Source: Vulcanimicrobiota bacterium
GTDB taxonomy: Bacteria > Vulcanimicrobiota > CADAWZ01 > Ess09-12
DNA length: 38,781 nucleotides
NCBI GenBank assembly: GCA_031082125.1
Contig: JAVHLM010000011.1
Coordinates: 159,054-197,834, forward strand
Reading direction: 5' to 3'
The notes below the pieces were generated by a model that searched no databases, had not been told where the DNA came from, and saw only the letters and a list, made by a program, of their open reading frames with translations. How positions within the stretch are numbered: the stretch's first letter is position 1; the number at the start of each line of letters is the position of its first letter. A program made the position numbers and the translations under genes. Shown here piece after piece: positions 1-32,925 of this stretch.

Positions 1-380
1 CAGGTGCAGCCACAGGTGCAGCCACAGGTGCAGCCACAGGCAAGGCCACAGGTGCAGGCACAGCCACAGGTGCAGGCACAGCCACAGGTGCAGCCACAGG
101 CAAGGCCACAGGCAAGGCCGCAGGTGCAGGCACAGCAACAGCCGCAGGTGCAGGCACAGGTGCAGCCGCAGGCAAGGCCACAGGTGCAGGCTCAGCCACA
201 GGCTCAGCCACAGGCGCAGGCACAGCAACAGCCACAGGCAAAGCCACAGGTGCAGCCGCAGGCAAAGCCACAGGTGCAGCCACAGGTGCAGCCACAGGTG
301 CAGCCACAGGTGCAGCCCCAGGTAAGACCCCAGGTGCAGGCGCAGCCACAGGTGCAACCACAGCAGCAGCCCCAGACCCA
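1..380 (+). repeat. In-frame tandem array of ~30 imperfect 12-nt units (CAGGTGCAGCCA / CAGGCAAGGCCA / CAGGTGCAGGCA) encoding (PQVQ/PQAR/AQVQ)n
   Basis: The 12-nt periodicity is visible by eye from nt 1 to about nt 370. It translates to PQVQPQVQPQARPQ... in the frame of the HD-GYP ORF. Confidence 0.9.
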
Positions 381-2448
381 GGAGAGACACCAGGCCCCTG
401 CCGCCCGGCAGCCTTCAGGGGAGAGCTCTTTTCCCTGGACAGGGCTCTCTGCTTCACCGGTAAAACCTGCCCCTCTTGGTGATCAGACATGGAAGCCCAT
501 TCCGGGATCATTGCCGCAGGACAGGAGAGCCCTGACGCCAAGAAATGAATCCCTCACGCAGGGAGGCGACATTGCCCTCAGGGAGTGGACAAACCTGAAA
601 GGGGAAAAAGTGAAGGTTCCCGACTCCCCGCAGCAGCAGAGAGCCGCTGCACCGAAGCCTGAGGCAAAGGAGCCCCCTGCTCAGGAAAAAGCCGCCATCC
701 TGCAGGAAAGAGAGCCTTCGCCGAAACCCCAGGTGCCCGGGAAAGATCAGATCCCGCCTGGCAAAAGCGAAGCCACTGACATATACCGCTCGGTCCTTAA
801 GAGTCTCATAGCTGACAAGGAAATTGAGCCATCTCAGCAGGGCGGGCTGTCGCAGAAAGCCAGGGAGAGCCAGACAGAGCAGCCAAAACCACAGGAGCTT
901 CCAAGAGAGCTTCAGCGCCTGGCTCCACAGCCCCCTGGAGCCAGGGAAAATGAGACACCTCAGGATATCAGCAGGAAAGCTCCCTCATCCAGGGAGCAGG
1001 TGACGGCTGATAAGCTTGCGGAGCAGGAGGAAACAAGGGCTCCCCAGGCTAAAGATCCTGCCCTTGCCCCCCGCGAGGAGCGGCTTATGCTGAGAGGCTC
1101 AGACTCGCTCAGGGAAGCCTTCAGGAAAGAGACGGAACAGGCCAGGAAGCCTTCCGAGCCATCCGAGGCCCCTCCCCGTGAAGAGCCTCTGGAAGCGCCG
1201 AGAGCGCCGATCAGCAGCAAGACATCCATACCGGCTGCCAGGGAAAGAAAGACCGACGAAGGCCCGTCCAGGCAGGCCATCGAGGGACAGCAGCGCTCTG
1301 CAGGCCAGGGAGCGGAGAAACCCCAGATCATGGCAAGCTGGGTAGCCTCATCGGCCCTTCCCGATGAGGGAAGGCCTTACCTGTCCAGGGGAGCCGCGCA
1401 TAAGGAACAGGATAAGTTCGCCTCCTTCAGCGATAAACAGATGATAGAGCGCGTCGAGAAGCATGAGAGAGGCTCCGGAGGCCAGGGACAGGAACAGGGC
1501 TCCTCAGGTGACGGGCAGGAGCGGGGAAGGTCCCGGTGGTCCTCAATGCCGCAGAATGCCCCGGCAAGGAGCGAGGCCCAGAAATCCCAGCCGGCGCCGC
1601 AGCAGGCAGCCGTGGAGACATTCAAGAAAGCTGCCGTGGAAAAGCAGAGGGAAACGGTAACCAGGATAGTGCAGGCGAGCAGGCAGGCGCCCATCAGGCT
1701 CACCGAAGAGGCGGCAAAGCACGCCGCCACCTCTATTGAGAGCATCCTCAAGAAATCGCAGAAAGAGACCTGGACAGGCGATGAGATGGCCACCAAGCTC
1801 ATAGCGCTTCTGATGAAATCCAGCAGCGAATATACTTATGACCACAGCACCCGTGTCATCGATCTCTCGGTAATGCTGGCGAAAGAGATGGGGATAACGG
1901 AAGAAGAAACTCTCCGGGATATCGAGGAGGGTGCCATGTTCCACGATATAGGTGAAGTGGAGCTTGATCTGAGGATGGCTCCTCCGCAGGTGAAGTCACG
2001 CCTTGCGCACTATATCGGCGTCACCGATCTCAAGAACTGCAGCTTCCTCCATGACATAGGGAAGATAAAGATTCCCGAGGAAGTGCTCTACAAGCCCTCA
2101 AGGCTTACCGACGAGGAATACGAGATCATCAAGCAGCACCCCCTGATAGGGGAAGAGATACTGAGACCCATCCCTGCCATGCAGCATGTCCTGCCCGTGG
2201 TGCGCCACCATCATGAGCGCTGGGACGGCAAGGGCTACCCTGACGGCCAGAGCGGCAGCGATATCCCACTTCCCGCGAGGATAATAGCCATCACTGATGC
2301 TTTTGACGCAATGGTGTCGGACAGGCCTTACAGGAAAGGGATCCCCCTTGAGGATGCCCTGGCGGAGATCAGGAAGAATTCCGGCGTCCAGTTTGACCCT
2401 GACCTGGTGCAGGCATTCCTGCAGGTGGTGGATAAGCACTACCGCTGA
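1..2448 (+). CDS. HD-GYP domain protein (putative c-di-GMP phosphodiesterase), 5'-truncated at the window edge. It has a P/Q-rich low-complexity N-terminal region.
   Basis: The C-terminal ~200 aa carry the HD motifs (HDIGE/HDIGK) and 'HHERWDGKGYPDG' (the GYP motif). The ORF runs open to nt 1 with no start codon, so it is partial. Confidence 0.85.
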   Translation, partial: QVQPQVQPQVQPQARPQVQAQPQVQAQPQVQPQARPQARPQVQAQQQPQVQAQVQPQARPQVQAQPQAQPQAQAQQQPQAKPQVQPQAKPQVQPQVQPQVQPQVQPQVRPQVQAQPQVQPQQQPQTQERHQAPAARQPSGESSFPWTGLSASPVKPAPLGDQTWKPIPGSLPQDRRALTPRNESLTQGGDIALREWTNLKGEKVKVPDSPQQQRAAAPKPEAKEPPAQEKAAILQEREPSPKPQVPGKDQIPPGKSEATDIYRSVLKSLIADKEIEPSQQGGLSQKARESQTEQPKPQELPRELQRLAPQPPGARENETPQDISRKAPSSREQVTADKLAEQEETRAPQAKDPALAPREERLMLRGSDSLREAFRKETEQARKPSEPSEAPPREEPLEAPRAPISSKTSIPAARERKTDEGPSRQAIEGQQRSAGQGAEKPQIMASWVASSALPDEGRPYLSRGAAHKEQDKFASFSDKQMIERVEKHERGSGGQGQEQGSSGDGQERGRSRWSSMPQNAPARSEAQKSQPAPQQAAVETFKKAAVEKQRETVTRIVQASRQAPIRLTEEAAKHAATSIESILKKSQKETWTGDEMATKLIALLMKSSSEYTYDHSTRVIDLSVMLAKEMGITEEETLRDIEEGAMFHDIGEVELDLRMAPPQVKSRLAHYIGVTDLKNCSFLHDIGKIKIPEEVLYKPSRLTDEEYEIIKQHPLIGEEILRPIPAMQHVLPVVRHHHERWDGKGYPDGQSGSDIPLPARIIAITDAFDAMVSDRPYRKGIPLEDALAEIRKNSGVQFDPDLVQAFLQVVDKHYR

Positions 2449-17687: not shown

Positions 17688-17766
17688 ACCCAAAATTTCT
17701 ACAGGAGCCCTGGCTTACCCTTTAGGGAGAAGAAACCTTTTCCTTGGCCAGTTTCTGGCTGGCCCA

Positions 17767-17958: not shown

Positions 17959-20492
17959 GGATTCACTCCCACGGCGAGCTGCCGGGCGCGGAGCACGGCC
18001 TGCTCCGGGTCAACGACGCCTGCTCCCGCCGTGTGCGCCGGGATTCTTCCCCCCGAGAGCTTTGAGATATCGACGGCGGTGTCGCTCAGGATCTGCTTGA
18101 TCTGCTGCGGGGTGAGGCTTGGATTTACCTGCTTCATCAGGGCTATGACGCCGCACACGTAAGGCGCGGCAAGAGAGCTGCCCATGCCGCTCCCCGGGGC
18201 TCCGCCCGGCGCGTTGATGTGCACGCCGGGGGCAAGCACCGTGGGGTTGTAACCCCCGGGGCCCTGGCCGCTCGGAGGCGCCCCGCTGCCGTCAAGGCCG
18301 TAATGGGCAAGGCCGTCGTCGCCATAGCTTCCCGCCGTCCCTGAGCTGTCGGAGCCGCTCACGACAATCACGTGATTGCTCATTGCGAGAGCATTGAGAT
18401 CGGTGCCGGGCTTCACCTCGCCCCATGGCGGCCTGTCCGGGGGTCCTGGATCGCCAGGCCGGTAATTCCCATTGCCGTTCCCTGCGGCTACTACCACGCT
18501 CACCCCTGCCTCTGAGAGCCCGCGGGTGACCTCCTGGTATCTCTTGAGAGACTCGGAGAAGGCGCTCCCCGGCCTGTTATGCTCCTTATCCACGTAGCCG
18601 ATGATCTTTTCCATCTGCTGGCGAACCGTGAGCTTATCGCCCCCGCTGCCCAGGACCGCCTCCCTGATGCCCGGGAAGGCGAAGCTTCCGTCTTCCTTTT
18701 TCTCCCCGATTATCCGCAACACGGTGTTCAGGTCTGCAGAGCCGCCGCCGCCGATGGATATGTTGAGGGCGCTCATCTTCTCCTTCCCTGACCGCACGTC
18801 CTGGAGAAGGCTCTCAAGGCGCCTGTTGAGAAGGTCAAAGCTCCCTGACTTCGCAAGGAACCTGTTGAGCGATTCGGCATTATCTTCGAGCTTTTCGCCC
18901 TCGGGGTTCATGCCCGCCGGGGGTTTTATCAGGGTGTTGAGGTTGGGGAAGAAGTCGGGTCCCGCCTGCTGCATGCCGGTCCCGTTTTTCTCCAGGCCGA
19001 ATCCCTTTGTCGTGGCCCCGGGCGCCACGCCATGCTCAGCGTTATTAATCTTACCCGACACGCCGAAGGAGTGGCCTCCGCACTGCTGGGCAAACTCATC
19101 GAAGTCCACGTCCAGGAAGCCTATATTCTGGCCTTCCCCCGTGATCTGCCTTCCCTGGGCATCGCGCATTTTTGAATTGACGCGCTCCCGGATCACCCTG
19201 ATCTCGTCGTTGGCCTTACCCTGCTCGACGTCCTTCTCATTTATCCTCTCCCTGTACTCCATCGAGGTGGCTGTGCCGTCTCCCTTGAAATCATACAGGC
19301 TCAGCTTCCTGAACAGGCCGGGCTCTCCCCCGTAGACTGCCTCAGTGCAGGTGAGGTTACCTTCTCCGCTCATGCGGTATGTTCTTGACGGGCCTTTCCC
19401 CTCCATGGCGCCTGTGAAACCTGGACCGACGCGGAGCCTGTCCCGATAACGGTAGAGGGAGGTAATTTCTCCCGGGATCTTCTTCCCTTCGGCGTCCAGG
19501 GTGTCAGCGGCTTTTTCCTGCAGAAGGACCTGCCCCGGGATATCCTTGCTGAACTGCACCATCTTCGAGGATCCGTCCGGCAGTGAAGCCGTGATAACAG
19601 TGGACCCGTTGGCGGCAGTGCTCACTTCCTCTTTCTTGCTCCTCCCGTCAGGGTACGTGGTGGTGATCACCGTGGTGCCCTTGGCGGATTTCTTGATTTC
19701 TTCGCGCTCCCCTCCGGGGAGAATGTGCACGCCTTCGCCCTGGGAAGCCTTTTCTGCCACTGAGAGGCCGTATTTATATTCCTTATCGGCTTTTGCGCGG
19801 GCTCCCTCGTATTCCTTCCTCATGCTCTCTGCCTTTTTGGGATCGACGGGAGCGGGAGCGGGCATGTCATCCTGTTTTGCCGGGGCCGGGGAAGGCTGGC
19901 CTGCCCTGGGCCGGGGAGCCGGTGCAGGCGCGGCATCTTTGATCCGGGACTCGCTCTCCTCATCGTCCAGCATCAGGAGGGTGCCGTTGGAGCCCGCCTC
20001 TATCCTGGGAGCAAGATCATTCCTTCTCATATTGTGGGAGCTTACTGCCTGAGCAATGGCCCCCGGGACTGCGCTTTTCAGGAGCGACTGCGGAGTCGCG
20101 GTGCCATTGGGCTCCTGCGCGGGAGCGGCAAAGTCAGGAGAGCCATCGGTGCCTGCCGTTGCTCCTGGGCCGCTGTGGAAATCAGTGGTCTTTGCTGAAG
20201 AGCTCTGCTGCTGTTCCCTGCCGGTGCCACCCGCCATGCGCCAGAGTGCCTTGAATTTCTCAGCGGAAAACGATCCCGGCTTGAATGCCGTACCCGGGCC
20301 TTCAGGAACGCTCCCCCTCCCCACCTCGCCGCTTGGCGTGAATTCTTCCTTTCCATTGCAGCCGCTGCCCGCCTCTTCGCCGGGAGCCTGTGACGGTGCA
20401 CCAGGCCTTTTCTCATAAGCCCTGTGGCTCGTGATAGCCGGTATTGTGCCCTGGTGGCCGGGCACCCTCTGTCCTTCACCTATGGAGCTCAT
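17955..20492 (-). CDS. 845-aa protein with a C-terminal subtilisin-like (S8) peptidase domain and a ~480-aa non-protease N-terminal region; no signal peptide
   Basis: 'VSVVVAAGNGNGN', 'GVAPGA' and 'GMGSSLAAPYVCGVIALMKQ' align with the subtilisin Asn, His-region and Ser motifs. The N-terminus is hydrophilic. Confidence 0.65.
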   Translation of the reverse strand: MSSIGEGQRVPGHQGTIPAITSHRAYEKRPGAPSQAPGEEAGSGCNGKEEFTPSGEVGRGSVPEGPGTAFKPGSFSAEKFKALWRMAGGTGREQQQSSSAKTTDFHSGPGATAGTDGSPDFAAPAQEPNGTATPQSLLKSAVPGAIAQAVSSHNMRRNDLAPRIEAGSNGTLLMLDDEESESRIKDAAPAPAPRPRAGQPSPAPAKQDDMPAPAPVDPKKAESMRKEYEGARAKADKEYKYGLSVAEKASQGEGVHILPGGEREEIKKSAKGTTVITTTYPDGRSKKEEVSTAANGSTVITASLPDGSSKMVQFSKDIPGQVLLQEKAADTLDAEGKKIPGEITSLYRYRDRLRVGPGFTGAMEGKGPSRTYRMSGEGNLTCTEAVYGGEPGLFRKLSLYDFKGDGTATSMEYRERINEKDVEQGKANDEIRVIRERVNSKMRDAQGRQITGEGQNIGFLDVDFDEFAQQCGGHSFGVSGKINNAEHGVAPGATTKGFGLEKNGTGMQQAGPDFFPNLNTLIKPPAGMNPEGEKLEDNAESLNRFLAKSGSFDLLNRRLESLLQDVRSGKEKMSALNISIGGGGSADLNTVLRIIGEKKEDGSFAFPGIREAVLGSGGDKLTVRQQMEKIIGYVDKEHNRPGSAFSESLKRYQEVTRGLSEAGVSVVVAAGNGNGNYRPGDPGPPDRPPWGEVKPGTDLNALAMSNHVIVVSGSDSSGTAGSYGDDGLAHYGLDGSGAPPSGQGPGGYNPTVLAPGVHINAPGGAPGSGMGSSLAAPYVCGVIALMKQVNPSLTPQQIKQILSDTAVDISKLSGGRIPAHTAGAGVVDPEQAVLRARQLAVGVNP

Positions 20493-20722
20493 TGAATCAC
20501 CGCCTGAAAAATAAAAAAACCAGTAGATTCACGTTTCCCTGGCTCTCCTGCCCAATGTCCCTGTCTTTTCGTTCAGTTATCTTTTATATTATTATAAGGC
20601 CTCCATATTGCCATTGTATTACTGCAATGTAAATTTTTCTTGAAATGCGAAGACCTTTTTCCCGGCACATGGACAGCGGCACCTGTGTCATGGCTTCAGC
20701 GGCCTGTCAGAAAGCGGCTCTT

Positions 20723-22186
20723 CTAAAGAAGGCGTTCTTCAGGCCTGTTCTCCCCAAGCTTTTCCTTTAAAAGTGTTCCGTTATTTCCATAAAAAGGTTC
20801 TTCAAAGGCCTCAAGCTTCCTGATATAGTCCCGGTGATATTTTTCAGCCTGCCTGAGCGCCAGGCCGCAGGTGATCCTGTTCCCGTAGGTTCTCTCCAGA
20901 AACATTCTCTTGAAGCTGTAAAATTTCTTGTTGGCTCTCTGCACCGCTCTCTGGAGAACGCTTGGCCGCATATGCATGGGAAAGAAGACAGAATGATGAC
21001 AGTCGTAATATCTCCAGTCATAGGTAAAGATCCGGTTTTCCTCGACGCACTGAGTAAATACCTCCGATCCCGGCAGGGGGCAGAGTATGAAAAGCTGCAT
21101 GACGGCCATGCCAAGCTCAATGGCGTGGTCAACGGTTTCTGCCACCGTCTCTTCCGTATCGGAGTCCGATCCGACAATGAACATCCCGTTCACCTTGAGA
21201 CCGTGCTTTCTTGCCTGCTCCACGGCAAACCGGATCTGCTCGACAGATATGTTCTTCTTCCATTCCTTCAGTGAGCCTCTGCTGATGGACTCGAAGCCCA
21301 CATGGAGGAGCCCGAAGCCTGCCTCGTTGATAAGGGAGAGGAACTCCTCATCCTTGAAAGTCTCAACTCTGAGCTGCATGTTATAAAGGACATGACGGGG
21401 CTTCCCCAGCCTGATCATCTTCCTCAGGAGCTCTTTTGCGCGGTCCATGTCAACGGTGAAATTGTCATCGATGATCATTATGGATTTTCTCTCTTTTATG
21501 CCCTTGAGAGCATTTCTGATGTCGTCGATGCAGCAGTCAAGATCCCGGTAGCGCAGCTTCCTTCCCGCAAGCTTGATCACCGTGCAGTATCTGCAGTTGA
21601 ATGGGCATCCACGGGAGGTATAGACCATGGGAGTATAGAAGAACCTGCTTCCCAGTCCGTTCTTATAGGCTTCTATCCCCTTGACCCTGGAGAAGGTGGC
21701 GGGGACATTGATAAATTCATCACTAATCTCCCGGTCCTCATTGTGGACTATGGCCCCATCCTTTCTGTAGGAGAGCCCCTTTATTCCCTCCACGCCGCTG
21801 CCTGCATTGAGAGCGGCGAGAAGCTCCAGGAATGTCTTCTCCGCCTCGCCCCGGGCGACATAATCACAGTGGCCGAGCGCCTCGTCGGGCTGAAAGGTGG
21901 CGTGGGGCCCTCCCATGATGACGGTTTTCCCGCGCTTTTTCAGGGCATCTGCATACCGGTAGCCCTGATGCGATGAGTTTGTCAATATGGAGATTCCCAG
22001 GAGGTCATAGCCCTCAAGCTCACCCATCGAGGGCTTTCTTATCTTGTCGCTGAATATGTCAACTTCATATCCCTCATGCTCGAGCAGGTTCCCCAGCACG
22101 GGAAGGCCAAGCCGCGGAATTCCAATCAGCTTGTAAATATTGGGGATATCGGTATCAGGCTCGACAAGGGCAATCCTTTTTATCAT
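20723..22186 (-). CDS. B12-binding-domain radical SAM protein (class B rSAM)
   Basis: It has an N-terminal B12-binding-like Rossmann fold, then 'YTSRGCPFNCRYCTV' CxxxCxxC. There is a C-terminal extension of ~120 aa. Confidence 0.8.
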   Translation of the reverse strand: MIKRIALVEPDTDIPNIYKLIGIPRLGLPVLGNLLEHEGYEVDIFSDKIRKPSMGELEGYDLLGISILTNSSHQGYRYADALKKRGKTVIMGGPHATFQPDEALGHCDYVARGEAEKTFLELLAALNAGSGVEGIKGLSYRKDGAIVHNEDREISDEFINVPATFSRVKGIEAYKNGLGSRFFYTPMVYTSRGCPFNCRYCTVIKLAGRKLRYRDLDCCIDDIRNALKGIKERKSIMIIDDNFTVDMDRAKELLRKMIRLGKPRHVLYNMQLRVETFKDEEFLSLINEAGFGLLHVGFESISRGSLKEWKKNISVEQIRFAVEQARKHGLKVNGMFIVGSDSDTEETVAETVDHAIELGMAVMQLFILCPLPGSEVFTQCVEENRIFTYDWRYYDCHHSVFFPMHMRPSVLQRAVQRANKKFYSFKRMFLERTYGNRITCGLALRQAEKYHRDYIRKLEAFEEPFYGNNGTLLKEKLGENRPEERLL

Positions 22187-22502
22187 GGGAATCACCATGC
22201 TCCGGTTTCTTATCAGGATCCAATCTTAACAGATAATGGCCCGCAGTGCAAGGCCCAGAAAAAGGAGATATAGCCGGCAGCATTGCGAAGAGCAGGGCAC
22301 TCAGCCAGCTCAGCATGGAAAGCTCGACCCTGCGGCCCATCGCCCCCTGTGAGAAATGCAGGAGAGGCTTTCTGCTCTCAAGCTGGTATCCTCCCAGGAG
22401 GCGCGGATAAGTAAAGATGAAAACGATGAAGCATGCGATGAGCACCGCTGCCTGCACTAGCTTTCTGCGCAGGGGGAGGCCTCTTTCTGCCGGGGAAGGC
22501 AC
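22155..22502 (-). CDS. Possible small membrane protein ORF between the PilZ gene and the rSAM gene; it overlaps the rSAM start
   Basis: The ORF starts 15 nt after the PilZ stop. It has two hydrophobic helices. There is no homology, and its real extent is uncertain. Confidence 0.25.
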   Translation of the reverse strand: MPSPAERGLPLRRKLVQAAVLIACFIVFIFTYPRLLGGYQLESRKPLLHFSQGAMGRRVELSMLSWLSALLFAMLPAISPFSGPCTAGHYLLRLDPDKKPEHGDSHDKKDCPCRA

Positions 22503-22517
22503 CGGGAAATCAACTGT

Positions 22518-22916
22518 TCAGTGGCCGATGAGATAATAGCGGTCAATGAAAAACTCCAGCTTTTTAGCGTCCTTGTCACTGATGTTGACGAACTCTATCC
22601 CGCCTTCATAATGAAGCCCGGCCGCCGAGTGCCTTTCATCGCACCACACCACGCGCCCGGTTACCTCGAGCGATAAAAGCGCAGGGTGGAGCGCTATCCT
22701 GATAGTAAGAATCTCATCAGCGATCAGCATGTGGTGAGAAATAAAGTTCAGCCCCGCGGTGCTCACGTTCTCTGATTTCACCTCAAAGACTGACTCACTC
22801 CGAGGGCTGGAGCATTCCAGGGAGAGCACCATTTTGAATCGGCTGGCTTTTCTGCGCTCTGTTCCCGAAAAGACGCTTTTTGCATCGGGTATTCCGCCAT
22901 ATTTTGCAGTACCCAT
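22518..22916 (-). CDS. PilZ-domain protein (c-di-GMP receptor family)
   Basis: It has the 'RRKASR' (RxxxR) and 'NVSTAGL' (D/NxSxxG) motifs. The RBS AAAGGGG precedes the ATG. Confidence 0.65.
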   Translation of the reverse strand: MGTAKYGGIPDAKSVFSGTERRKASRFKMVLSLECSSPRSESVFEVKSENVSTAGLNFISHHMLIADEILTIRIALHPALLSLEVTGRVVWCDERHSAAGLHYEGGIEFVNISDKDAKKLEFFIDRYYLIGH

Positions 22917-23070
22917 TGATTCGCCCCTTTCCCTGGTTCTCTTACCGCGGCATGGCCTTCATCAGAACTTCAGATAAAGCCGCCGCGTAAAATGCATTCC
23001 CCTGTTTCCATTGTAATGCAGCAGCGCTGGCAGATCCTCCCTCATAAGACCTATTTTTACCGTACTGTAT

Positions 23071-23088
23071 GAACTATTCCGGTAGTTC
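23071..23088. promoter_or_regulatory. Perfect inverted repeat GAACTA-N6-TAGTTC in the divergent intergenic region between the PilZ operon and the MVP gene
   Basis: The 6-bp arms with a 6-nt spacer were read directly from the sequence. It is a candidate operator. Confidence 0.25.
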
Positions 23089-23126
23089 AAAGGACTGAGT
23101 GCACCGGTTGAGGGTATTCCTCAGAT

Positions 23127-25739
23127 GTGATGAATATCACAGACTTGTTCCGCAGATTTGCTACAATGAGTGCAAGACCAGAAAGAATCCAGAGGGAAGA
23201 AAGGAATACAATGTCAGAGAATACGCGAGAGAGAGATTTGGTGCTTGCCCCGAATGAATATGCCTTTATCCTCGATGAGACCAAGGGCCATGTGATTGCT
23301 TACGTGGGCCCCTTCAAAACAAGCCTTGCCAACACCGACAGGCCCGTCATTTTCGAGGAGCTGTCACGGAAGTTCAAGAGATGCAGCCTTGAAGAGGCGA
23401 TCACTCAGTTCCCCTTCGCCGAGGAGGGGTGGTACATAGTGCTTGAAAACCCGGTGAAGGAAGGAGATGAAGAGCATCCCAAAAGCGGCCCCGCGAGCCT
23501 TCCGAGGCTTGCGCCGGGAAGAAAGGTGAACATTCCCGGTCCCGTCACCTTCCCTCTGTGGCCCGGCCAGGTGGCCCATGTCATCCAGGGGCATCACCTG
23601 CGCTCAAACCACTATCTCGTGATCAGGGTTTACAACGAGGAAGCGGCGAGAGATAACTGGGCCAAGGCAGTCATCAAGCCCCAGAAAGCCTCTCCCGCGG
23701 GGGCACCTGATATAGACAAGGGAAAAGCCGATGATTCCGGCAAGCCGGCAGGCGGCACCACGGTGAAGCCCGATGTGGAGATACCCGATCTCACCATCGG
23801 CAAGCTCCTCGTGGTGAAAGGAACGGATGTCTCTTTCTATATCCCTCCCACGGGCATTGAGGTGGTAAGGGATGAAAACGGGAACTACGTGAGAGAGGCT
23901 GTCACCCTGGAACGGCTTGAATACTGTATCCTCCTGGACGAGGACGGCAACAAGCGCTTCATCGAAGGCCCTGCCGTGGTATTCCCGAGGCCCACGGAGC
24001 GGTTCGTCGAGAAGAGCGGGGCCAGGAAGTTCAAAGCCATTGAGCTGAACGAGATAAGCGGCCTCTACATCAAGGTGATAGCACCCTACAGGGATGAAAA
24101 GGGCACGGAATACAAGGTGGGAGACGAGCTTTTCATCACAGGCAAGGACCAGATGATCTACTTCCCGAGGCCCGAGCATGCCATCATCAAGTACGGCGAC
24201 CAGGAGATCCACTTTGCCGCAGCAATCCCCACGGGTGAAGCCCGGTATGTCCTCAACAGGGTCTCGGGGGAGATCAGCCTGAAAAGGGGCCCCTGCATGT
24301 TCCTGCCCGATCCCCGCAAAGAGGTGAACATCCAGCGGATCCTGGAGCCCAAGATCGTGCAGCTCTATTATCCCGGCAACCAGGAAGCCCTGGAATACAA
24401 CCTGAAGCTCATGGATCTCAAGAGGATCACCAGGAGCGACTTCATTGACACCACGCAGGTAAAGAAGGAGATGGCGGGCCAGGGAGCCGACAAAGGGCGC
24501 AAGCCTCTTTCAAGAGGAAGGAGCGAGGCTGAGGAAGCCCCGGACAGCTTCGCGGGCGATGACTTCAACAGGAAACAGGGATTCACGCCGCCCAGGACCA
24601 TCACCATGGACACCAAGTATGAGGGCGCTGTCTCGATCAACGTGTGGACCGGCTATGCCATCATGGTGGTGAACAGGACAGGAGAGCGCAAGGTCGTAGT
24701 CGGCCCCCAGACCCATATCCTTGAATTTGATGAGATGCTCGAGGCCATGAAGCTCTCCACGGGCACTCCCAAGAGCGACGACAACGTCATCAGGACAGTG
24801 TACCTGAGGGTCCTCAACAACAAGGTCTCCGATATCGTCAACGCCGAAACCCAGGACCTCTGCCAGGTGAGCATCCAGATCTCATACCGCGTCAATTTTG
24901 AAGGAGACCCCGTGAAATGGTTCGACGTGGAGGATTACGTGAAGTTCCTCACCGAGCACATGCGATCCGTTCTGCGCAATGCCATAAAGCACTATGGCAT
25001 CGAGGAGTTCTATGCAAATTCGATCAAGATAATAAGGGATACCATTCTCGGGACTGCCGGCGAGGAGTCGAAGCGCCCGGGGAAGCGCTTTGACGAGAAC
25101 GGCATGCGCATCTATGACGTGGAAGTCCTGGGAGTTGGAATCGGCGACGAGGTGATAGCGGGCCTTCTCATGGAGGCGCAGCACTCGGTGGCCCAGCAGA
25201 CCATCAGTATCACCAAGGAGCAGAAGAACCTGGAGATGACCAGGAGGCTCGAGGAGATAAAGCAGCAGATAAGCGCCGCCCAGTCCGAGACGATGCTGAA
25301 GCATATCACGCTTGAGATAGCGGAAGTGGAGAAAACTCTTGAACTGAGCCTCTCGAAAATAAAAAGCGAGGTTGATGCCGCCAACCTGCGCCTCGCCTCG
25401 CAGCTTGAGCAGCAGGGCAGGCTCAGCGACATCGCCGAAGCAGAGCTTGACAGGGAGAGGAAGCATAAGGAGCAGGAAATGGAGTTTGCGCAGGAAGCCC
25501 TCAAGCAGCGCATTGAGGAGCTCGGCGCCCAGGTGAAGGCAGTAGTCGATAAGGCAGCGGCCGTATCGCCTGATTTCATCGCCGCCCTGCAGTCCTTTGC
25601 AGACAAGAGCCTCGCGGAAAAGATGGCCGACACCATGGCCCCGCTTGCGATACTCGGAGGCAAGAGCATCGCCGAGGTCTTCGCCCAGCTTCTGAAGGAC
25701 ACGCCGCTTGAAGAGGTGATAAAGAAGAGAGCGAAGTAA
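23127..25739 (+). CDS. Major vault protein (MVP) homologue, 840-870 aa
   Basis: The N-terminal repeats 'PNEYAFILDETKGHVIAYVGPFKT' and 'FPLWPGQVAHV' resemble the MVP 'PPYHYIHVLDQNSNV..VGPKTY' and 'FPLYPGEVLE' segments. The C-terminal shoulder and cap-helix-like coiled coil (…IKIIRDTILG…LEEIKQQISAAQ…) and the overall length also fit MVP. The likely true start is ATG 23214 (MSENTRERD), which has a purine-rich RBS. Confidence 0.7.
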   Translation: MMNITDLFRRFATMSARPERIQREERNTMSENTRERDLVLAPNEYAFILDETKGHVIAYVGPFKTSLANTDRPVIFEELSRKFKRCSLEEAITQFPFAEEGWYIVLENPVKEGDEEHPKSGPASLPRLAPGRKVNIPGPVTFPLWPGQVAHVIQGHHLRSNHYLVIRVYNEEAARDNWAKAVIKPQKASPAGAPDIDKGKADDSGKPAGGTTVKPDVEIPDLTIGKLLVVKGTDVSFYIPPTGIEVVRDENGNYVREAVTLERLEYCILLDEDGNKRFIEGPAVVFPRPTERFVEKSGARKFKAIELNEISGLYIKVIAPYRDEKGTEYKVGDELFITGKDQMIYFPRPEHAIIKYGDQEIHFAAAIPTGEARYVLNRVSGEISLKRGPCMFLPDPRKEVNIQRILEPKIVQLYYPGNQEALEYNLKLMDLKRITRSDFIDTTQVKKEMAGQGADKGRKPLSRGRSEAEEAPDSFAGDDFNRKQGFTPPRTITMDTKYEGAVSINVWTGYAIMVVNRTGERKVVVGPQTHILEFDEMLEAMKLSTGTPKSDDNVIRTVYLRVLNNKVSDIVNAETQDLCQVSIQISYRVNFEGDPVKWFDVEDYVKFLTEHMRSVLRNAIKHYGIEEFYANSIKIIRDTILGTAGEESKRPGKRFDENGMRIYDVEVLGVGIGDEVIAGLLMEAQHSVAQQTISITKEQKNLEMTRRLEEIKQQISAAQSETMLKHITLEIAEVEKTLELSLSKIKSEVDAANLRLASQLEQQGRLSDIAEAELDRERKHKEQEMEFAQEALKQRIEELGAQVKAVVDKAAAVSPDFIAALQSFADKSLAEKMADTMAPLAILGGKSIAEVFAQLLKDTPLEEVIKKRAK

Positions 25740-25773
25740 CGGCCTGAGGGGAAAGACAGCTGAAAGCCTCGAA

Positions 25774-25815
25774 GGGGCGGCGGCCGCAAAGGTGCTGCCC
25801 CTTTATCTTTTCTTG
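25774..25815. terminator. GC-rich hairpin (GGGGCGGC...GCTGCCCC) followed by a T-tract, between the convergent MVP and 25803 genes
   Basis: The stem and TTTATCTTTTCTT tract were read from the sequence. They overlap the last codons of the minus-strand gene. Confidence 0.4.
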
Positions 25816-26198
25816 CGCCCTCCGTCGAGGAGGTCCCTGTAGATGGTGATCTCCAGGTTGGTCCCGCCGTAGTCGTCGGTGGTGATTGTGGGGATCCTGA
25901 GCAGGTACGACTCACTCGCCTCGAGCTCCTTCTCGGCCTTGAGGGCGGCATCGTGGAGGCGCCTGAGGCCCAGGGGGTATTTCCTGAGGTCAATCTTTTC
26001 CTTGCGGTAAAAATAGCCGAGGGTGTGCTCGACGATCTTCTTCGCCCTGGGGTTCAGCTCGGGAAGGGGGAGCTTTGAGACGGGCTCGTCAACGACCCTC
26101 TTTATCTCGGTTTTGGGGGCTATCATGAAGATGACGAGGTAGAGTACCGCAATGACTCCGATGACGCCGGCGACAATAACACCGATGCTTTCAAACAT
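25803..26198 (-). CDS. N-terminally TM-anchored protein of unknown function
   Basis: It has one N-terminal hydrophobic helix and then a charged ~100-aa domain. The RBS GGGGGAG precedes the ATG. Confidence 0.5.
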   Translation of the reverse strand: MFESIGVIVAGVIGVIAVLYLVIFMIAPKTEIKRVVDEPVSKLPLPELNPRAKKIVEHTLGYFYRKEKIDLRKYPLGLRRLHDAALKAEKELEASESYLLRIPTITTDDYGGTNLEITIYRDLLDGGRKKR

Positions 26199-26340
26199 TC
26201 TTCCGCTCCCCCCTGCCCTTTAAGCACCATTATACCACAGGGCCGGTGGTGAGTAAACCATCACTTCATAAAAAAACCCGGGGCACCGCGTGGATGCTCC
26301 GGGCGACAGAGGGAACTCTGTCATGAGGTATGCCTGCTGC

Positions 26341-26772
26341 TCAGAACAGTTTGTTCTTGGGATCAAACTCATCGAGACGGTACTTGTCGATGAATTTCTC
26401 GAAGAACCTCGTGTCCTCATCGCTCATGGAAATAATCTCGATTCCGCCCTCATAGAAGGACTTGCCGTACATCATCTTCCTGTCGCACCATACGACACGG
26501 CCCTTGGCAGAAATCGTCGGGAAATGCGAATGGAGCAGGACCTTCATCGCGATAATCTCGCCTGCGAAGAGCTTTTTCGAGGAGACAAATTTTATCCCGT
26601 GCACGTTGACATTTTCCGTCATAAGCTGGAAGGGATCCTGGTGCTCCTGGCTCTGGCAGCTCACTATCAGAAGCATCTTGATGCGCTTGAGCTTTCTCCT
26701 GTCCGTATCATGCGAGGAGGCCTGAGCTTTCACCGGGGCAGTCTCCTTCTGCCGTTTCAGTATTGGCCACAT
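26341..26772 (-). CDS. PilZ-domain protein, a paralogue of the 22518 gene
   Basis: It has the 'DRRKLKR' and 'NVNVHGI' motifs. The C-terminus 'GRVVWCDRKMMYGKSFYEGGIEIISMSDEDTRFFEKFIDKYRL' is nearly collinear with 'GRVVWCDERHSAAGLHYEGGIEFVNISDKDAKKLEFFIDRYYL'. Confidence 0.65.
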   Translation of the reverse strand: MWPILKRQKETAPVKAQASSHDTDRRKLKRIKMLLIVSCQSQEHQDPFQLMTENVNVHGIKFVSSKKLFAGEIIAMKVLLHSHFPTISAKGRVVWCDRKMMYGKSFYEGGIEIISMSDEDTRFFEKFIDKYRLDEFDPKNKLF

Positions 26773-26901
26773 ATAATCACCCTTTCTTGTTGTTTCCCCC
26801 TCTTCTATTGTAACGTATTGAGCTGAATTGTAATACCTGCACATGAACTATAGTGAAGCCGCCAAAAGAACTATTGAGAATTCTTCCCATTAATAACTTT
26901 G

Positions 26902-27746
26902 CTACGGTTTTTTTTCGGCAGGGAGCGTGAAGGCAGGGAAAAAATAGGCATAAAGGGTACGGATGGTGAAATTTTTCCAGTCAAGCCCGTCGGAGGCCTT
27001 TTTCTCGTAATCCCTGTGATAGGCAAGGGTTCTCTCCAGCACATGATCAAGGTTCACGCCGTAGAGAAGGTTGTCTGCATGGGCGGAAAATATGGTATGG
27101 ATTAAATAGCTCCTCTCGAGGGAAAAGCTCTTCAGCCTCGTGATGGACTCCTCTGCCTTGCTGCTTGCGGCCCTGTCCTGGCAGGGATCACCCTCAAAGA
27201 GCCACCAGTCGCCTGAGCACCATACTCCCCTGAAAACACAGTGAACATCGCCAAGAGAATGCTTGGGGCCGTAAATAAGAAAGAGAGGCTCACCGCCGAG
27301 GGTGAGCTCCAGGATATCAGAGAAGAAAATCTCGTTGAAGCTGGAGAGAAACCATTCCTTGCCGCTCTTCTCCTTCACCTCCGCCCAGGGGCTTCTTTTC
27401 GGCGCAAGGTGGCCCCTGGTCCAGTAATATTCAGACATCTTGAAAAAGAGAGGGGCCGAGTAATGGACCACAAAAAGAGCCTCTGGAAAGGCCTGCCTGT
27501 ACTCATGGATCGAGGCGGTATGATCCCAGTGGGGATGGGAGAAAAAGAGGTAACGGCATTTCCAGCGCCTCTTCTCGAGAGCCTTTTTCACCACCATTGC
27601 CGGGTGCTCGGCCCCTGTCGTGGGAGGAGGCATTTCAAAGACCGCGCACTCACCACCTGCCTGAAGGAGCCAGGCACCTACCTTCCAGGTGCTGAAACGA
27701 CCTGCAAGGAATATACCCTCTGCTTTTTCTTCCAGCTTGAAATCCA
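26902..27746 (-). CDS. MBL-fold metallo-hydrolase
   Basis: It has the 'FFSHPHWDHTASI' HxHxDH motif. The start was set at MDFKLEEK; the longer ORF beginning at 27855 has no RBS. Confidence 0.65.
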
Positions 27747-27805
27747 TTGTTTTTCTCTGGCCGGGGATTTTTCCTATTAGTTCTCTCTTGGTGCGGTGGG
27801 CCCCT

Positions 27806-27840
27806 TTATTTGGCAGGAAGGGAGGAAAATATGGTATAAT
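27806..27840 (+). promoter_or_regulatory. Putative sigma70-type promoter for the EcsC-like gene (TTGGCA ... TGgTATAAT extended -10)
   Basis: TGGTATAAT at 27832-27840 lies ~45 nt upstream of the ATG, and TTGGCA lies ~19 nt upstream of that. Both were read from the sequence. Confidence 0.3.
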
Positions 27841-27879
27841 GATGTGGTAAGACATGCCCTTGATATATGTGAAAAGGAG

Positions 27880-28749
27880 ATGCCTATGAACAGGGATTAT
27901 TTCATCGACTGGGCCGATTTTCTGGACGATGACGAGAAAAAGGCGTACGGCGAGATCCAGCAGTGGGAAGAGAGGCCCCCCTCGCAGCTTTCCCTCATGA
28001 AATCATTGACGGTGCCCCTTATCAACGAGGCAAGGAAGCTCTCGCCGGATCTTGCCGACAAGGTCGCCGCTGCGGTGAAGGAAGCCCTCACGTCCCTCAG
28101 GGACTACGCAGGGATGACTGTCATACCTGATTCCATTGAGAACAAGATCAAGGCCATTGCCTGCTCCATGCCCGCTTCAGGTGACGGCGCCGAGCTGTAC
28201 ACCCCCCTGGCATGCTTCGACAGGGCGGCAAGGGAATGCATACTCTTCAACACGGCCTTTGCCACCGTGGAGGGGGTGATGTCAGGAGCTCTCGGCATCA
28301 CAGGCATGCTCATTGACATCCCGATGCTCTACACGATGCTTTTCAGAGTCATTCAGGAAACGGGCCTCTGTTTCGGCTACTTCATCAACAGCCCCGAGGA
28401 GAAGCTCTACGTGATGAAAATCCTGGAGCTGGGCCACACTCCCGAGGACTCGGCGAGGAAGGAGGCCATAGGAGAGCTTTACACCCTCCACAAAGCCATA
28501 AGCGGGGGAGTATCCCTTAACACCCTTAAGGCAAAAGGCGCAATAACGGGCTTTGAGGCCGTCTCGGAAAAGATTGCCGCGGCCTTCTCCAGGAGAAGGC
28601 TGAGAAACATATTCATGCTCGCCGGGGGAATTCTCGGCGGAGCCGCGAACTTCGCCCTCACCCGCCAGGTGGCTGATGCCGCCTTCCATACCTACAGGAG
28701 AAGGTTTATCATGGACAGGGCCAGGGCCCGCATGAGCAAACGCCTCTAA
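27880..28749 (+). CDS. EcsC-family protein
   Basis: It has a glycine-rich amphipathic core 'GVMSGALGITGMLIDIPMLYTMLFRVIQETGLCFGYFINSPEEK'. The RBS AAGGAG precedes ATG 27880/27886. Confidence 0.45.
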   Translation: MPMNRDYFIDWADFLDDDEKKAYGEIQQWEERPPSQLSLMKSLTVPLINEARKLSPDLADKVAAAVKEALTSLRDYAGMTVIPDSIENKIKAIACSMPASGDGAELYTPLACFDRAARECILFNTAFATVEGVMSGALGITGMLIDIPMLYTMLFRVIQETGLCFGYFINSPEEKLYVMKILELGHTPEDSARKEAIGELYTLHKAISGGVSLNTLKAKGAITGFEAVSEKIAAAFSRRRLRNIFMLAGGILGGAANFALTRQVADAAFHTYRRRFIMDRARARMSKRL

Positions 28750-30239
28750 TACAGCCTGTTGGCAATTTTCGCGAGTTCTTCACCTACTGAGTTGTCCGTG
28801 GTGATCTCCTCAAAAGGTATGGAGCTTGTCTGGATCCCCCTGATGGCGGGCATCACCCTGGACCTGCCCTGTGAGGCGAGCTCCACCACTTTTTTCGCCA
28901 TCCTCTGGGTCAGGGCGATATCGATATTGTTGGGGCTCGCTCCCCTGATGTCCCTGGAGAAGGGCTCGCAGTATATCTTCATTCTGGTCTTGAGGCCCGC
29001 AGCGAGCAGCATATCCCTGAAATACTCGGCTGCGTTGCCGCAGAAGTTCTTCTCCTTCCTCTCCTCTTTCCTGTAGCCTTCGGCCACGACAATCACTGCC
29101 GATTCTTTTTCCTCGAGGGCCTTTGCTATGCGGGGAATGTCATACTCAAGGCCCGGGAGCACAGCCAGGTGTGCGCCGGCGCCGATACAGGAGTTGAGGG
29201 CGTGAAAGCCGCCCATGGCGCCCATCATCTCAACGATATAGCAGCGGTGATGAGTCCGCGCGTCGGCCATGTAGCAGCGCACCTTTTCCGAGCCCGCTTC
29301 CACGCCGGTATGCTGGCCGATTGTCTCGGTCCCATGGACATCGCTGTCGATGGTGACCGGCACGAAGAACACCTGGACATGGTCAGGCAGATGTGATGCA
29401 AAGGCCTTGAGCCCGCCGAAAGTGCCGTTCCCGCCCACGCCGATAACGATCTTCACATGGCGGCTCAGGGCGTTTTCCACGGCCTTTTTCTGGTTGGCTA
29501 CCTCCCTGAACTCCGGGAAGCGCTCGGACCTGAAATTCGCCCCGCGGGCATCGCGGAGCGGCGGTGTGAAGATCACGCCGGGAATGTGGTCAAAGAGGTT
29601 GAAAATCTTGGGATTATTGATGAGGCAGCGGAAGTCCTCATCCTTCCCGCTCACCAGCGAGCGGTAGCCCTCGGCAGTGATAAAGACCTGCCTTCCCGCC
29701 TTTTCCAGGGCTTCGGTGAGAAAGGCGATAATGGGGTTCTTGCCGGGGGCGCATCCGCCGTCCTCTATGATAAGGACATCCATGAACCGGTAAAGATCTG
29801 CTTCTTCTTGGAGATATGTGGCGATGTGCTTGCTGAATTCGCGGTAAATGCTCAGCATGGCTTTCGATGAGAGGATATCGTCACGAGTGATGAGATCATA
29901 TTCAATGCAGATTACCACGCTCTCTTCCAGGGCTTTCAGGATCCCCTTGACATTCTTTTCCTCAAAGAGGGGCAGGAGGCCGAATAGCTCGCCTTTATCA
30001 AAGGTCGTGGTGATTCGCCCGAACATCTCATAGGCGAAGATTCCCTTTTCCACCACATAGGCGCACTTCGCCTTTTCTCCCTGCTGGTACACATACTCGC
30101 CTGCGGAGTATTTCTCGCGGTAGAGGTGGGCGGCAAATTTCTCCATCTGCTCCCGCTCCAGGCCATTGAAGAACGGGGTGCTCAGCAGAAAATCCACCAT
30201 GGTGGGATCATCGGCCTTGAAATCAATTCTTTCTGACAT
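28746..30239 (-). CDS. Fusion of a cyclic-nucleotide-binding domain with a phosphofructokinase-family domain that has altered catalytic motifs
   Basis: The N-terminus 'TFDKGELFGLLPLFEE...' is a CAP/Crp-type cNMP domain. The downstream segments 'GGCAPGKN', 'FRSERFPEFRE', 'VIGVGGNGTFGG', 'VPVTIDSDV' and 'EMMGAMGG' correspond to PFK 'GGDAPGMN', 'ARFPEFRD', 'GGDGS', 'TIDND' and 'MGR', with substitutions. Confidence 0.65.
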   Translation of the reverse strand: MSERIDFKADDPTMVDFLLSTPFFNGLEREQMEKFAAHLYREKYSAGEYVYQQGEKAKCAYVVEKGIFAYEMFGRITTTFDKGELFGLLPLFEEKNVKGILKALEESVVICIEYDLITRDDILSSKAMLSIYREFSKHIATYLQEEADLYRFMDVLIIEDGGCAPGKNPIIAFLTEALEKAGRQVFITAEGYRSLVSGKDEDFRCLINNPKIFNLFDHIPGVIFTPPLRDARGANFRSERFPEFREVANQKKAVENALSRHVKIVIGVGGNGTFGGLKAFASHLPDHVQVFFVPVTIDSDVHGTETIGQHTGVEAGSEKVRCYMADARTHHRCYIVEMMGAMGGFHALNSCIGAGAHLAVLPGLEYDIPRIAKALEEKESAVIVVAEGYRKEERKEKNFCGNAAEYFRDMLLAAGLKTRMKIYCEPFSRDIRGASPNNIDIALTQRMAKKVVELASQGRSRVMPAIRGIQTSSIPFEEITTDNSVGEELAKIANRLY

Positions 30240-30327
30240 ATTCTGTTTTTCCTTTCCTCTCATTCCTTGCTCTGATAAACTCATTGAAGCCTGCAGTCAA
30301 TTCGGATTTTCCCTGCTCCCTGGCAGC

Positions 30328-31887: not shown

Positions 31888-32925
31888 ATGAAAGGATGCA
31901 GATTCGGCTCCCACCGGGTGATTGAACCTCAGGGGGTTCTCCCCCAGCCGGCCCAGAGAATTGATAACACCATGGAGATAAAGGACAACGAGATCCTGCT
32001 GGACGTGATACGCCTTAATATTGACTCGGCCTCGTTCCACCAGATTGTAGAGGAGGTGGGCAGGGATGAGCAGAAAGTGGCCGACAGGGTGCTCTCAATC
32101 GTGGCGGCCAGGGGAAAAATGCACAATCCTGTTACTGGCTCGGGGGGCATGCTCATTGCCAGGGTAGCAAAGATAGGGGCCGACCTCAAGGGAAAGATCA
32201 CACTCCATGAGGGAGACAAGATAGCGACCCTCGTATCGCTCTCCCTCACCCCACTCAAGATTCACAGGATCAAGAAAGTGCTGCTGGATCAGGACCAGGT
32301 GGAAATTGAAGGGCAGGCCGTGCTCTTTGAGAGCGGCGTCTATGCAAAGCTCCCCGATGACATGTCGGAGACGCTGGCCCTCTCGATCCTGGACGTGGCA
32401 GGGGCCCCTGCCCAGGTCAAAAGGCTCGCAAAGAAGGGACAGACCATATTCATACTGGGCGCCGGCGGGAAGTCCGGCCTTCTCTGCACGGCCATGGCGC
32501 GGGATATAATGGGGAAAGAGGGTAAGATTATCGGGATGGTCCACAGCGAGCGCTCGGTAAAAACGGCTGAAAAGCTTGCCATGGCCGATGTCCTCTTCAA
32601 GGCGAACGCCACCAATGCCCTGGAAGTCTACAATGAGCTCCACAGGCTCACCGACGGCAAAATGGCGGACCTTGTCATCAACTGCGTGAACGTGCCCGAC
32701 ACCGAGATGACTTCGATACTTGCCAGCAGGGACAGAGGCACTGTCTATTTCTTCTCGATGGCCACCAGCTTTACCAAGGCGGCCCTTGGTGCCGAGGGCA
32801 TAGGCTACGACGTGGACATGATCATCGGAAACGGCTATTGCAGGGATCATGCCGACATCTCCCTCGACATCGTGAGAAAATACCCGGTGCTCAGGCAGAT
32901 TTTCCAGGAAAAATTCTCAAAATAA
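31888..32925 (+). CDS. kdd: L-erythro-3,5-diaminohexanoate dehydrogenase-like (lysine fermentation Kdd)
   Basis: The N-terminus 'MKGCRFGSHRVIEPQGVLPQPA' and the Rossmann 'ILGAGGKSG' fit Kdd. It lies immediately upstream of kamA and has a strong AGGAGG RBS. Confidence 0.55.
   Translation: MKGCRFGSHRVIEPQGVLPQPAQRIDNTMEIKDNEILLDVIRLNIDSASFHQIVEEVGRDEQKVADRVLSIVAARGKMHNPVTGSGGMLIARVAKIGADLKGKITLHEGDKIATLVSLSLTPLKIHRIKKVLLDQDQVEIEGQAVLFESGVYAKLPDDMSETLALSILDVAGAPAQVKRLAKKGQTIFILGAGGKSGLLCTAMARDIMGKEGKIIGMVHSERSVKTAEKLAMADVLFKANATNALEVYNELHRLTDGKMADLVINCVNVPDTEMTSILASRDRGTVYFFSMATSFTKAALGAEGIGYDVDMIIGNGYCRDHADISLDIVRKYPVLRQIFQEKFSK

Follow-up and report, generated by a model that had tools for sequence, protein, structure and literature searches.

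The 38.8-kb window analyzed here, a stretch of contig JAVHLM010000011.1 from a metagenome-assembled genome of the Eremiobacterota/Xenobiia, contains a gene for a homolog of the eukaryotic major vault protein (MVP) that lies between two genes for PilZ-domain proteins. A preliminary description of this DNA read the arrangement as a possible vault-like compartment under control of cyclic di-guanosine monophosphate (c-di-GMP). This raises two questions: does the gene encode a true MVP, and do the PilZ genes have anything to do with it? Judged from its sequence, the protein is a true member of the MVP family and not a generic SPFH or coiled-coil protein. We consider it likely that it is an ordinary bacterial member of this family with incidental PilZ flanks, whose product, as we infer, assembles into a shell.

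Pfam searches with the 870-aa open reading frame (ORF) that contains the gene gave matches to MVP_shoulder (E-value 1.2e-29, ORF residues 564-673) and Vault_3 (7e-8), and a weaker match to Band_7 (8e-6). The shoulder model (PF11978) scored 103 bits against a cutoff of 25 and was covered from profile position 2 to 117 of 118; Vault_3 (PF17795, the R9-type repeat) scored 33 bits against a cutoff of 28.8. Since the MVP-specific models far outscore Band_7, the protein is best regarded as a true MVP rather than an SPFH protein. Both MVP models were found in all 56 relatives tested. The Vault model (PF01505) was matched by 20 of these 56 at E<=1 (best 2e-4), and the window protein itself lay below its reach. 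Sequence searches against the PDB returned vault proteins only. The E-value fell from 1e-16 for the single sequence to 4e-25 for a profile of 56 sequences and to 1.5e-42 for one of 85 sequences that was built from 50%-identity representatives. The alignment to rat MVP runs collinearly from residue 458 of the rat protein to about 811 and spans R9, the shoulder and the cap helix.

The repeat region was reached with the 85-sequence profile, in which residues 242-365 are collinear with rat residues 294-409 (independent E-value 0.0055), and which also matched the sequence of the murine MVP R1-R7 crystal (3gf5, E 6.3e-5). A Foldseek search with a full-length AlphaFold2 (AF2) model placed MVP chains in the first 12 positions (1e-20 to 3e-17), followed by a second tier of HflK/C, prohibitin, stomatin, flotillin and erlin at ~1e-7. 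With a model of residues 1-480 alone, 16 MVP entries were retrieved (1.3e-7 to 5e-4), the murine R1-R7 crystals among them, and the next match had E>1. The full-length model is confident for residues 470-780 only. For residues 1-470 the confidence was low (predicted local distance difference test, pLDDT, of 50-58, and of 50 in the N-terminal model), and the models were used for fold retrieval and not for geometry. The N-terminal half is interrupted by two low-complexity insertions, both variable (about residues 157-192 and 425-470). Residues 1-535 leave room for about nine units of 55 residues, and comparison of the profile with itself gave weak off-diagonal signals (E 0.015-0.04) at shifts of about 55 residues. 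The N-terminal repeats and the shoulder of the preliminary description are thus recovered by the Pfam, PDB and Foldseek searches taken together. None of these searches led to the alternative it had named, an SPFH/Band-7 or generic coiled-coil protein that lacks matches to MVP repeats.

The shoulder is followed by a predicted helix of 139 uninterrupted residues (646-784), for most of which the pLDDT is ~71-85, dropping to ~55 at the very end. It aligns with the post-shoulder region of rat MVP up to about residue 805-811, in agreement with the long C-terminal region of the cap-helix type that had been described before. In the tail behind it, P787, L801, M809, P811, L812, A813, G816, G817 and S819 are invariant in alignments of 17 and of 56 sequences. 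The tail could be the equivalent of the cap ring. Conservation within the family is very strong over the whole length and includes the extreme N-terminus and the C-terminal motif. On reading of the sequence, no membrane segment or signal peptide was visible at the N-terminus.

The last MVP repeat contains a motif S-T-G-x-P-K, of which S516, G518, P520 and K521 are invariant in the same two alignments. In the window it reads L-S-T-G-T-P-K (24753-24773, residues 515-521), and its S and K are invariant in the 85-sequence set as well. The bacterial LSTGTPKSDD aligns with rat LSAGRPKRPH, which is the site of the 'keyhole loop' of the nucleotide pocket of human MVP. The human loop, which reads G-R-P-K-R-P-H, binds NAD+/ADP-ribose, and the pocket residues are R504, K506, R507, P508 and H509 (PMC12280208). 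A human-type adenine-nucleotide pocket was considered for the bacterial protein and rejected, since R504, R507 and H509 are replaced and G, P and K alone are kept. As S-T-G-x-P-K is nevertheless invariant in the bacterial family, the loop would matter for something other than a human-type pocket.

The 870-aa ORF itself (23127-25739, +), given in the preliminary description as the gene, is present, but its start is not the true one. The mechanical call begins at a GTG at 23127 and adds an unsupported extension of 28 codons. The database twin of the protein (P0001, annotated as 'SPFH domain-containing protein', Candidatus Eremiobacteraeota) and all homologs begin with MSENTRERDL, which lies 28 residues into the ORF, and the ATG at 23211 has an AAAGGA Shine-Dalgarno sequence 5 nt upstream. 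For these two reasons we place the gene at 23211-25739, and ATG 23211 is very probably the true start of a protein of 842 aa.

Is such a gene rare among bacteria, as had been stated? A word-indexed search at E<=1e-3 found more than 6,455 clusters at 90% identity and an exhaustive search at E<=1e-30 found 648 representatives at 50% identity, spread over many phyla and reaching into huge phages, which contradicts this claim. The best 120 of the more than 6,455 clusters are all 805-897 aa long, at least 59% identical, and come from Eremiobacterota/Xenobia, Riflebacteria, Wallbacteria, Desulfobacterales, Magnetoovum and others. With no more than two short peptide patterns, relatives were recovered in 260 species-level genomes and 265 metagenome stretches, among them Myxococcota, Cytophagales, Chloroflexota, Sericytochromatia and Gemmatimonadaceae. 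Family identity across phyla is 55-60%. Full-length homologs with 44-48% identity over 84-100% of the query are also encoded in the huge-phage records LR756500.1 (20952-23387), LR756501.1 and LR756503.1 (17581-19599), from genomes of 462-735 kb. These phage copies are a possible route for the patchy spread of the family.

Bacterial MVP homologs were described in silico in 2013 (Daly et al., 2013; PMC3762200) and again by Sokolskyi (2019; bioRxiv 10.1101/872010), phage MVPs were reported in a 2023 preprint (bioRxiv 10.1101/2023.11.10.566534), and a 2026 Asgard study cites bacterial MVPs (PMC12962969). These four sources report no experiments on a bacterial MVP, so that the window gene adds a member to a family that is known but, as had been noted, functionally unstudied. 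They contain no link to PilZ, and a library search gave none either. Bacterial MVPs as such are not new to the literature, where they have been treated since 2013.

The value of the PilZ link depends on its conservation. None of the five closest MVPs (P0002, P0003, P0004, P0005 and L091; 83-85% identical) has a PilZ gene beside it. The MVP gene of P0002 (84%) lies between an ion-channel gene and a C11 peptidase gene, and that of P0003 (84%) between an MFS transporter gene and hypothetical genes. Those of P0004, P0005 and L091 (83-85%) are followed by genes for a NapH-like ferredoxin, UbiA and a molybdate transporter; a PQQ gene lies within this stretch in P0004 and P0005, and rplK-rplA lie upstream of MVP in L091. 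Neighbors were then compared in six-frame ORFs of ~160 loci (80 from genomes, 80 from metagenomes). A scan with a PilZ hidden Markov model (HMM) and motif found PilZ near MVP in L011, L016 and L020 only, with a distal one 3.6 kb away in L113; in the other ~155 loci this narrow HMM and strict motif found none.

The three loci with a nearby PilZ are from Riflebacteria and encode a protein of ~480 aa with an N-terminal PilZ domain and ~350 residues that match no family (L011:11693-13147, +; L016:10742-12196, +; L020:5860-7299, -). It lies 0.3-1.3 kb from MVP; in L011 and L016 it follows MVP in the same orientation, and in L020 it precedes MVP and is divergent from it. It has no phmmer match to the PilZ genes of the window. 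The three genomes are related, and the loci represent about one evolutionary event. PilZ genes typically make up an estimated 0.3-0.5% or so of the genes in such bacteria. By this estimate, one lineage-level event in ~160 loci, with the window set aside, is roughly what chance would give. Co-occurrence of PilZ with MVP in other genomes, which the preliminary description had set in advance as a check, is thus absent at the closest loci and nearly everywhere beyond them, and where it occurs it involves an unrelated PilZ protein.

MVP loci share no other neighbor either. No neighbor family was common to them beyond close relatives among 77 genome loci. In an all-against-all clustering of 596 neighboring ORFs the largest cross-locus cluster covered 9 of the 77 loci and looked generic, and the remaining clusters reflect synteny of close relatives, such as the lepA-hemN-type genes in L001-L005. 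Pfam scans of the 222 ORFs within two genes of MVP produced 238 family listings with none dominant and PilZ not recurrent. The neighbors in the window were also used as phmmer queries against the ~160 loci: both PilZ proteins, the transmembrane Hsp70-like protein, the metallo-beta-lactamase (MBL) fold hydrolase, EcsC, the B12-radical S-adenosylmethionine protein (B12-rSAM), orf115, cNMP-PFK, S8 and ALDH. They returned only B12-rSAM paralogs (L016, L020, L027 and, weakly, L075) and one weak S8 match. We attribute the B12-rSAM matches to how common this family is in those genomes; L020 alone has five copies. In L016 and L020 B12-rSAM genes occur in pairs near MVP, with a DUF1858 gene in between in L020.

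The PilZ genes themselves were correctly recognized as paralogs on either side of MVP. We call them PilZ_up and PilZ_dn; they score 46.6 and 34 bits with the Pfam PilZ model (PF07238, cutoff 22.5) and are 41% identical over 111 aa (E 3e-32). Their C-terminal 45 aa had been called near-identical and are really about 50% identical (22/44 in the alignment). The start of PilZ_dn at 26772 that had been proposed is borne out by a conserved MW-IL N-terminus in its homologs, giving 143 aa. The RxxxR motif reads RKASR in PilZ_up and RKLKR in PilZ_dn, with both arginines invariant in 17 sequences. PilZ_up has a canonical [D/N]xSxxG motif (NVSTAG), and its motifs are conserved in its orthologs. In PilZ_dn the second motif is NVNVHG. 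Binding of c-di-GMP by PilZ_dn is uncertain because the motif serine is replaced by N throughout its orthologue group. Neither PilZ gene is linked in the window to known PilZ output genes (flagellar, pilus, cellulose).

In the alignment PilZ_up and PilZ_dn fall into two separate, older orthologue groups. The orthologs of PilZ_up are 132 aa long with 54-60% identity and adjoin genes for a Ser/Thr kinase (Pkinase) and ABC transporters; in P0124 (GCA_053578235.1) and P0125 (GCA_029216075.1) they are on other contigs than the MVP of the same assembly. The closest homolog of PilZ_dn is P0130 (77% identity). Another homolog (L090) has TldD and DUF2232 genes as neighbors, and no MVP is present in the 6-8 kb to either side of it. 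A third, on a metagenome contig (P0131), comes directly after a Lactamase_B (MBL) gene, the same pair as in the window. Because these groups sit elsewhere in relatives, the pair is, as read from the alignments, not a recent local duplication around MVP; the two are old paralogs with homes of their own. A tandem PilZ pair split by insertion of MVP was also considered and rejected, as the orthologs are not adjacent to each other in sister genomes. The MBL-then-PilZ pair, and not MVP, is the only recurring neighbor seen for PilZ_dn. In L090 (8955-12616) the DUF2232 and PmbA/TldD genes are within ~0.6-3.3 kb of the PilZ_dn homolog; in the window they are at 2491-7414, ~19 kb from PilZ_dn. This suggests that a block of the window including MVP was rearranged or inserted relative to L090.

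Expression signals do not tie the genes together. MVP is encoded on the + strand, opposite to both PilZ genes. A Rfam scan of 20000-29000 (E<=1) found no c-di-GMP (GEMM) or other riboswitch, but only two chance-level matches, both inside coding sequence. Between PilZ_up and MVP (22917-23210) there is no strong sigma-70 match, and promoter and terminator scans stayed at the level of shuffled sequence. The HD-GYP phosphodiesterase gene that had been noted in the same window is present (HD_5, motif HHERWDGKGYP), but it ends at position 2448, 20.7 kb from MVP. The c-di-GMP-controlled vault of the preliminary description is therefore unsupported, because MVP genes are common and the PilZ neighbors are peculiar to this genome; the arrangement is most likely incidental. 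A defense-island reading was dropped, as PADLOC models gave no match for MVP or either PilZ.

We propose that the MVP gene is a solitary and most likely monocistronic gene with its own ribosome-binding site and flanks on the opposite strand. Many copies of the product would pack laterally through the repeat and shoulder domains, and the cap helices would bundle, as in eukaryotic MVP. The result would be a hollow, vault-like shell or half-shell, which would be soluble and would require no dedicated partner gene. The position of the PilZ genes around it would be a product of extensive gene-order shuffling in the lineage and not a conserved functional module.

Several points weigh against this proposal. 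Cage formation is a prediction for every bacterial MVP, and the poor AF2 model of the N-terminal half makes any number or packing of the repeats tentative. PilZ_up and MVP have a divergent intergenic region of 294 bp in common, which would allow co-regulation. In Riflebacteria a second, independent adjacency of PilZ and MVP exists in three genomes and in two orientations, so that a weak real association is possible, and the background density of PilZ is rough as a result of the narrow HMM and strict motif used for distant flanks.

The main mechanistic rival, which we consider unlikely but deserving of attention, concerns what the protein builds. It could be an MVP homolog by descent and yet build an open ring or dome of the SPFH type over a membrane patch or another structure, in the manner of HflK/C, flotillin, prohibitin and stomatin, or serve as a scaffold that is no cage. 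The shoulder has an SPFH fold and matches Band_7, SPFH cages are the next-best structural matches, and a small membrane-anchored protein is encoded next to MVP. According to a recent report, eukaryotic vaults associate with membranes in situ (PMC13100048), and predicted Asgard homologs with fewer repeats were modelled as small closed cups (PMC12962969). The window MVP, in turn, is of full MVP size and keeps the whole N-terminal repeat region, with no visible membrane segment or signal peptide. Its extreme N-terminus, which in eukaryotic vaults makes the half-to-half contact at the waist, is among the most conserved parts of the family, and the membrane-anchored neighbor has no phmmer match in the ~160 other MVP loci.

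It is more doubtful that MVP is recently mobile cargo of a phage or other element that landed by chance between resident PilZ genes. Even MVPs that share 83-85% identity lie in different gene contexts, homologs with 55-60% identity are spread over many phyla and others (44-48%) occur in huge phages, phage MVPs have also been reported before (bioRxiv 10.1101/2023.11.10.566534), and the GC content of the MVP gene (0.55-0.58) is slightly above that of its flanks (0.50-0.53). Still, no integrase, transposase, tRNA or repeat boundary was seen beside MVP, although no search was aimed at repeats or tRNAs. The window MVP has its nearest relatives in sister Xenobiia genomes, a pattern in keeping with vertical inheritance and rearrangement, and since the PilZ genes are not adjacent in those genomes, there was no intact pair to split.

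Less probable still is a lineage-specific link, in this organism and perhaps in some Riflebacteria, in which a PilZ protein senses c-di-GMP, binds MVP or regulates its assembly and so controls formation, opening or localization of a vault-like particle: the bracketing PilZ genes, the canonical motifs and divergent promoter region of PilZ_up, the nearby PilZ protein of Riflebacteria and the HD-GYP gene speak for it, but the adjacency is lacking at the five closest and ~155 other loci, the PilZ orthologs lie on other contigs, the Riflebacteria protein is unrelated and about one chance-level event, the strands are opposite, the Rfam scan showed no riboswitch and 20.7 kb separate the HD-GYP gene from MVP. 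We give slightly less credence still to the wider form of this idea, that a PilZ protein couples c-di-GMP to assembly, opening or placement of a vault-like shell in this Xenobiia bacterium and, independently, in some Riflebacteria. A small probability is retained because PilZ_up shares its divergent control region with MVP and because the Riflebacteria PilZ gene stays by MVP through local rearrangement.

Table 1. Coordinates of MVP, its predicted domains and neighboring features in the window.
Feature	Position	Strand	Description	Evidence
MVP family gene	23211..25739	+	842 aa	Pfam MVP_shoulder, Vault_3; homolog starts; Shine-Dalgarno sequence
N-terminal half, residues 1-470	23211..24620	+	mostly beta-strand, MVP-repeat-like	
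Last MVP repeat (R9-type), residues 489-532	24675..24806	+	Vault_3	Vault_3 in 56/56 relatives
Shoulder, residues 536-645	24816..25145	+	SPFH fold	PF11978 1.1e-29; model pLDDT 82-92
Cap-helix-like region, residues 646-784	25146..25562	+	predicted long alpha-helix	DSSP on AF2 model
Conserved C-terminal tail	25563..25736	+	SPDxIAALQ...MAPLAILGGKS...	17- and 56-sequence alignments; pLDDT <50
PilZ_up	22518..22916	-	132 aa, single-domain PilZ, divergent from MVP	Pfam PilZ 4.7e-12
Intergenic region PilZ_up/MVP	22917..23210	.	divergent	Rfam scan, promoter scan, reading of sequence
Transmembrane + Hsp70-like protein	25803..26198	-	131 aa, convergent with MVP	Pfam HSP70 4.4e-7
PilZ_dn	26341..26772	-	143 aa, single-domain PilZ (ORF 26341-26844)	Pfam PilZ 3.8e-8
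MBL-fold hydrolase	26902..27855	-	directly upstream of PilZ_dn, same strand	Pfam Lactamase_B 1.1e-7
HD-GYP phosphodiesterase gene	1..2448	+	5' end cut by window edge	Pfam HD_5 1.6e-40; motif HHERWDGKGYP

Family searches also found in the window the other neighbors that had been listed, a membrane-anchored protein, an MBL hydrolase, an EcsC-like protein and a B12-rSAM. The first of these (25803-26198, -) has an N-terminal membrane helix followed by a segment of the nucleotide-binding subdomain IIB of Hsp70/DnaK (PF00012 positions 228-297; DnaK NCBIfam ~1e-8). Such a free-standing, membrane-anchored Hsp70 fragment is unusual, and it has no homolog in the ~160 MVP loci (phmmer). At 28746-30284 (-) a cyclic-nucleotide-binding domain is fused N-terminally to a protein of the phosphofructokinase family (cNMP_binding 9e-11, PFK 3.6e-43), which suggests a sugar kinase regulated by cyclic nucleotides. 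In the HD-GYP protein (1-2448, +) a very long N-terminal part is of low complexity and rich in QVQPQ/ARPQ repeats, and the first 2 kb of the DNA show a strong AT skew. A gene for a membrane protein similar to spermine/spermidine synthase (14583-16094) lies between genes for two DUF4178 proteins that have zinc-ribbon N-termini, and the three (13677-17693) could be a small conserved module. The region 7848-11081 (+) encodes an 859-aa protein that carries an HNH nuclease at its C-terminus and gave a weak DpdF-like PADLOC match, followed by a PIN-domain protein; these could be defense or mobile-element genes. Lastly, the genes at 31888-36562 for a lysine-2,3-aminomutase (LAM_C and radical SAM), a zinc-type dehydrogenase and a CoA-transferase form a group that resembles a lysine-fermentation gene set.

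The function of vaults has remained unsettled after decades of work, and a bacterial vault model with a clear regulatory handle would be valuable. If true, the coupling to PilZ and c-di-GMP would be the first regulatory input known for any vault-family particle; as the PilZ link is not conserved, this locus gives no such handle. What the survey around it does bring out is that the bacterial MVP family is much larger and wider than the literature states: it comprises hundreds of clusters at 50% identity and extends over many phyla and into huge phages. Bacterial MVP is unusually well conserved (55-60% across phyla), and its gene stands alone, without a fixed partner. All this would suit a self-sufficient shell protein, and for that reason any bacterial MVP gene would be a reasonable candidate for expression and imaging.

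Among known systems, the protein resembles eukaryotic MVPs (rat, human and rabbit; PDB 4V60, 4HL8, 7PKZ and 9BW5), which are its best structural matches by 13 orders of magnitude. The sizes are similar (861-893 aa against 842 aa), and the order of N-terminal beta repeats, R9-type repeat, SPFH shoulder, long cap helix and C-terminal tail is the same. Besides the collinear stretch from rat residue 458 to ~811, weaker stretches align in R1 and R6-R8. Identity is ~20% in structural alignments, and ~25% was given for bacterial and eukaryotic MVPs before (Daly et al., 2013; PMC3762200). The window MVP differs in its two low-complexity insertions and in the replaced basic residues of the 'keyhole loop', and its assembly is a prediction. 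The eukaryotic vault partners TEP1 and PARP4 (TROVE, PARP, vWA and NACHT-WD40 domains) were not found among the ORFs of the window, and no RNA family was matched near the gene above chance level (Rfam, 20000-29000).

The cage formers of the SPFH/Band-7 group (HflK/C, QmcA, prohibitin, stomatin, flotillin and erlin) likewise combine an SPFH-fold domain with a long helix behind it, and these helices bundle into a cap. The SPFH/Band-7 proteins differ in being 250-420 aa long and membrane-anchored, and they lack the repeat array of ~480 residues of the window MVP. The flanking proteins correspond to single-domain PilZ receptors (PF07238), as both are stand-alone PilZ domains with RxxxR and PilZ_up also has [D/N]xSxxG; the PilZ_dn group departs from them with N for the motif serine.

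Further counterparts are the bacterial MVPs described in silico from Corallococcus, Plesiocystis, Microscilla, Saprospira and Herpetosiphon (PMC3762200; bioRxiv 10.1101/872010). Related loci were found here in the same kinds of bacteria, with 55-69% identity in Myxococcota, Cytophagales/Microscillaceae, Chloroflexota and the lineage of the window. The window copy differs in coming from an Eremiobacterota/Xenobiia genome, a lineage unmentioned in that literature, and in its PilZ flanks, which are unique to this genome; the family is also far larger than the 'few Bacteria' of the literature (PMC12962969). In its sequence the window MVP belongs to the same 'chemotrophic' clade as these proteins, a clade that also matches Band 7.

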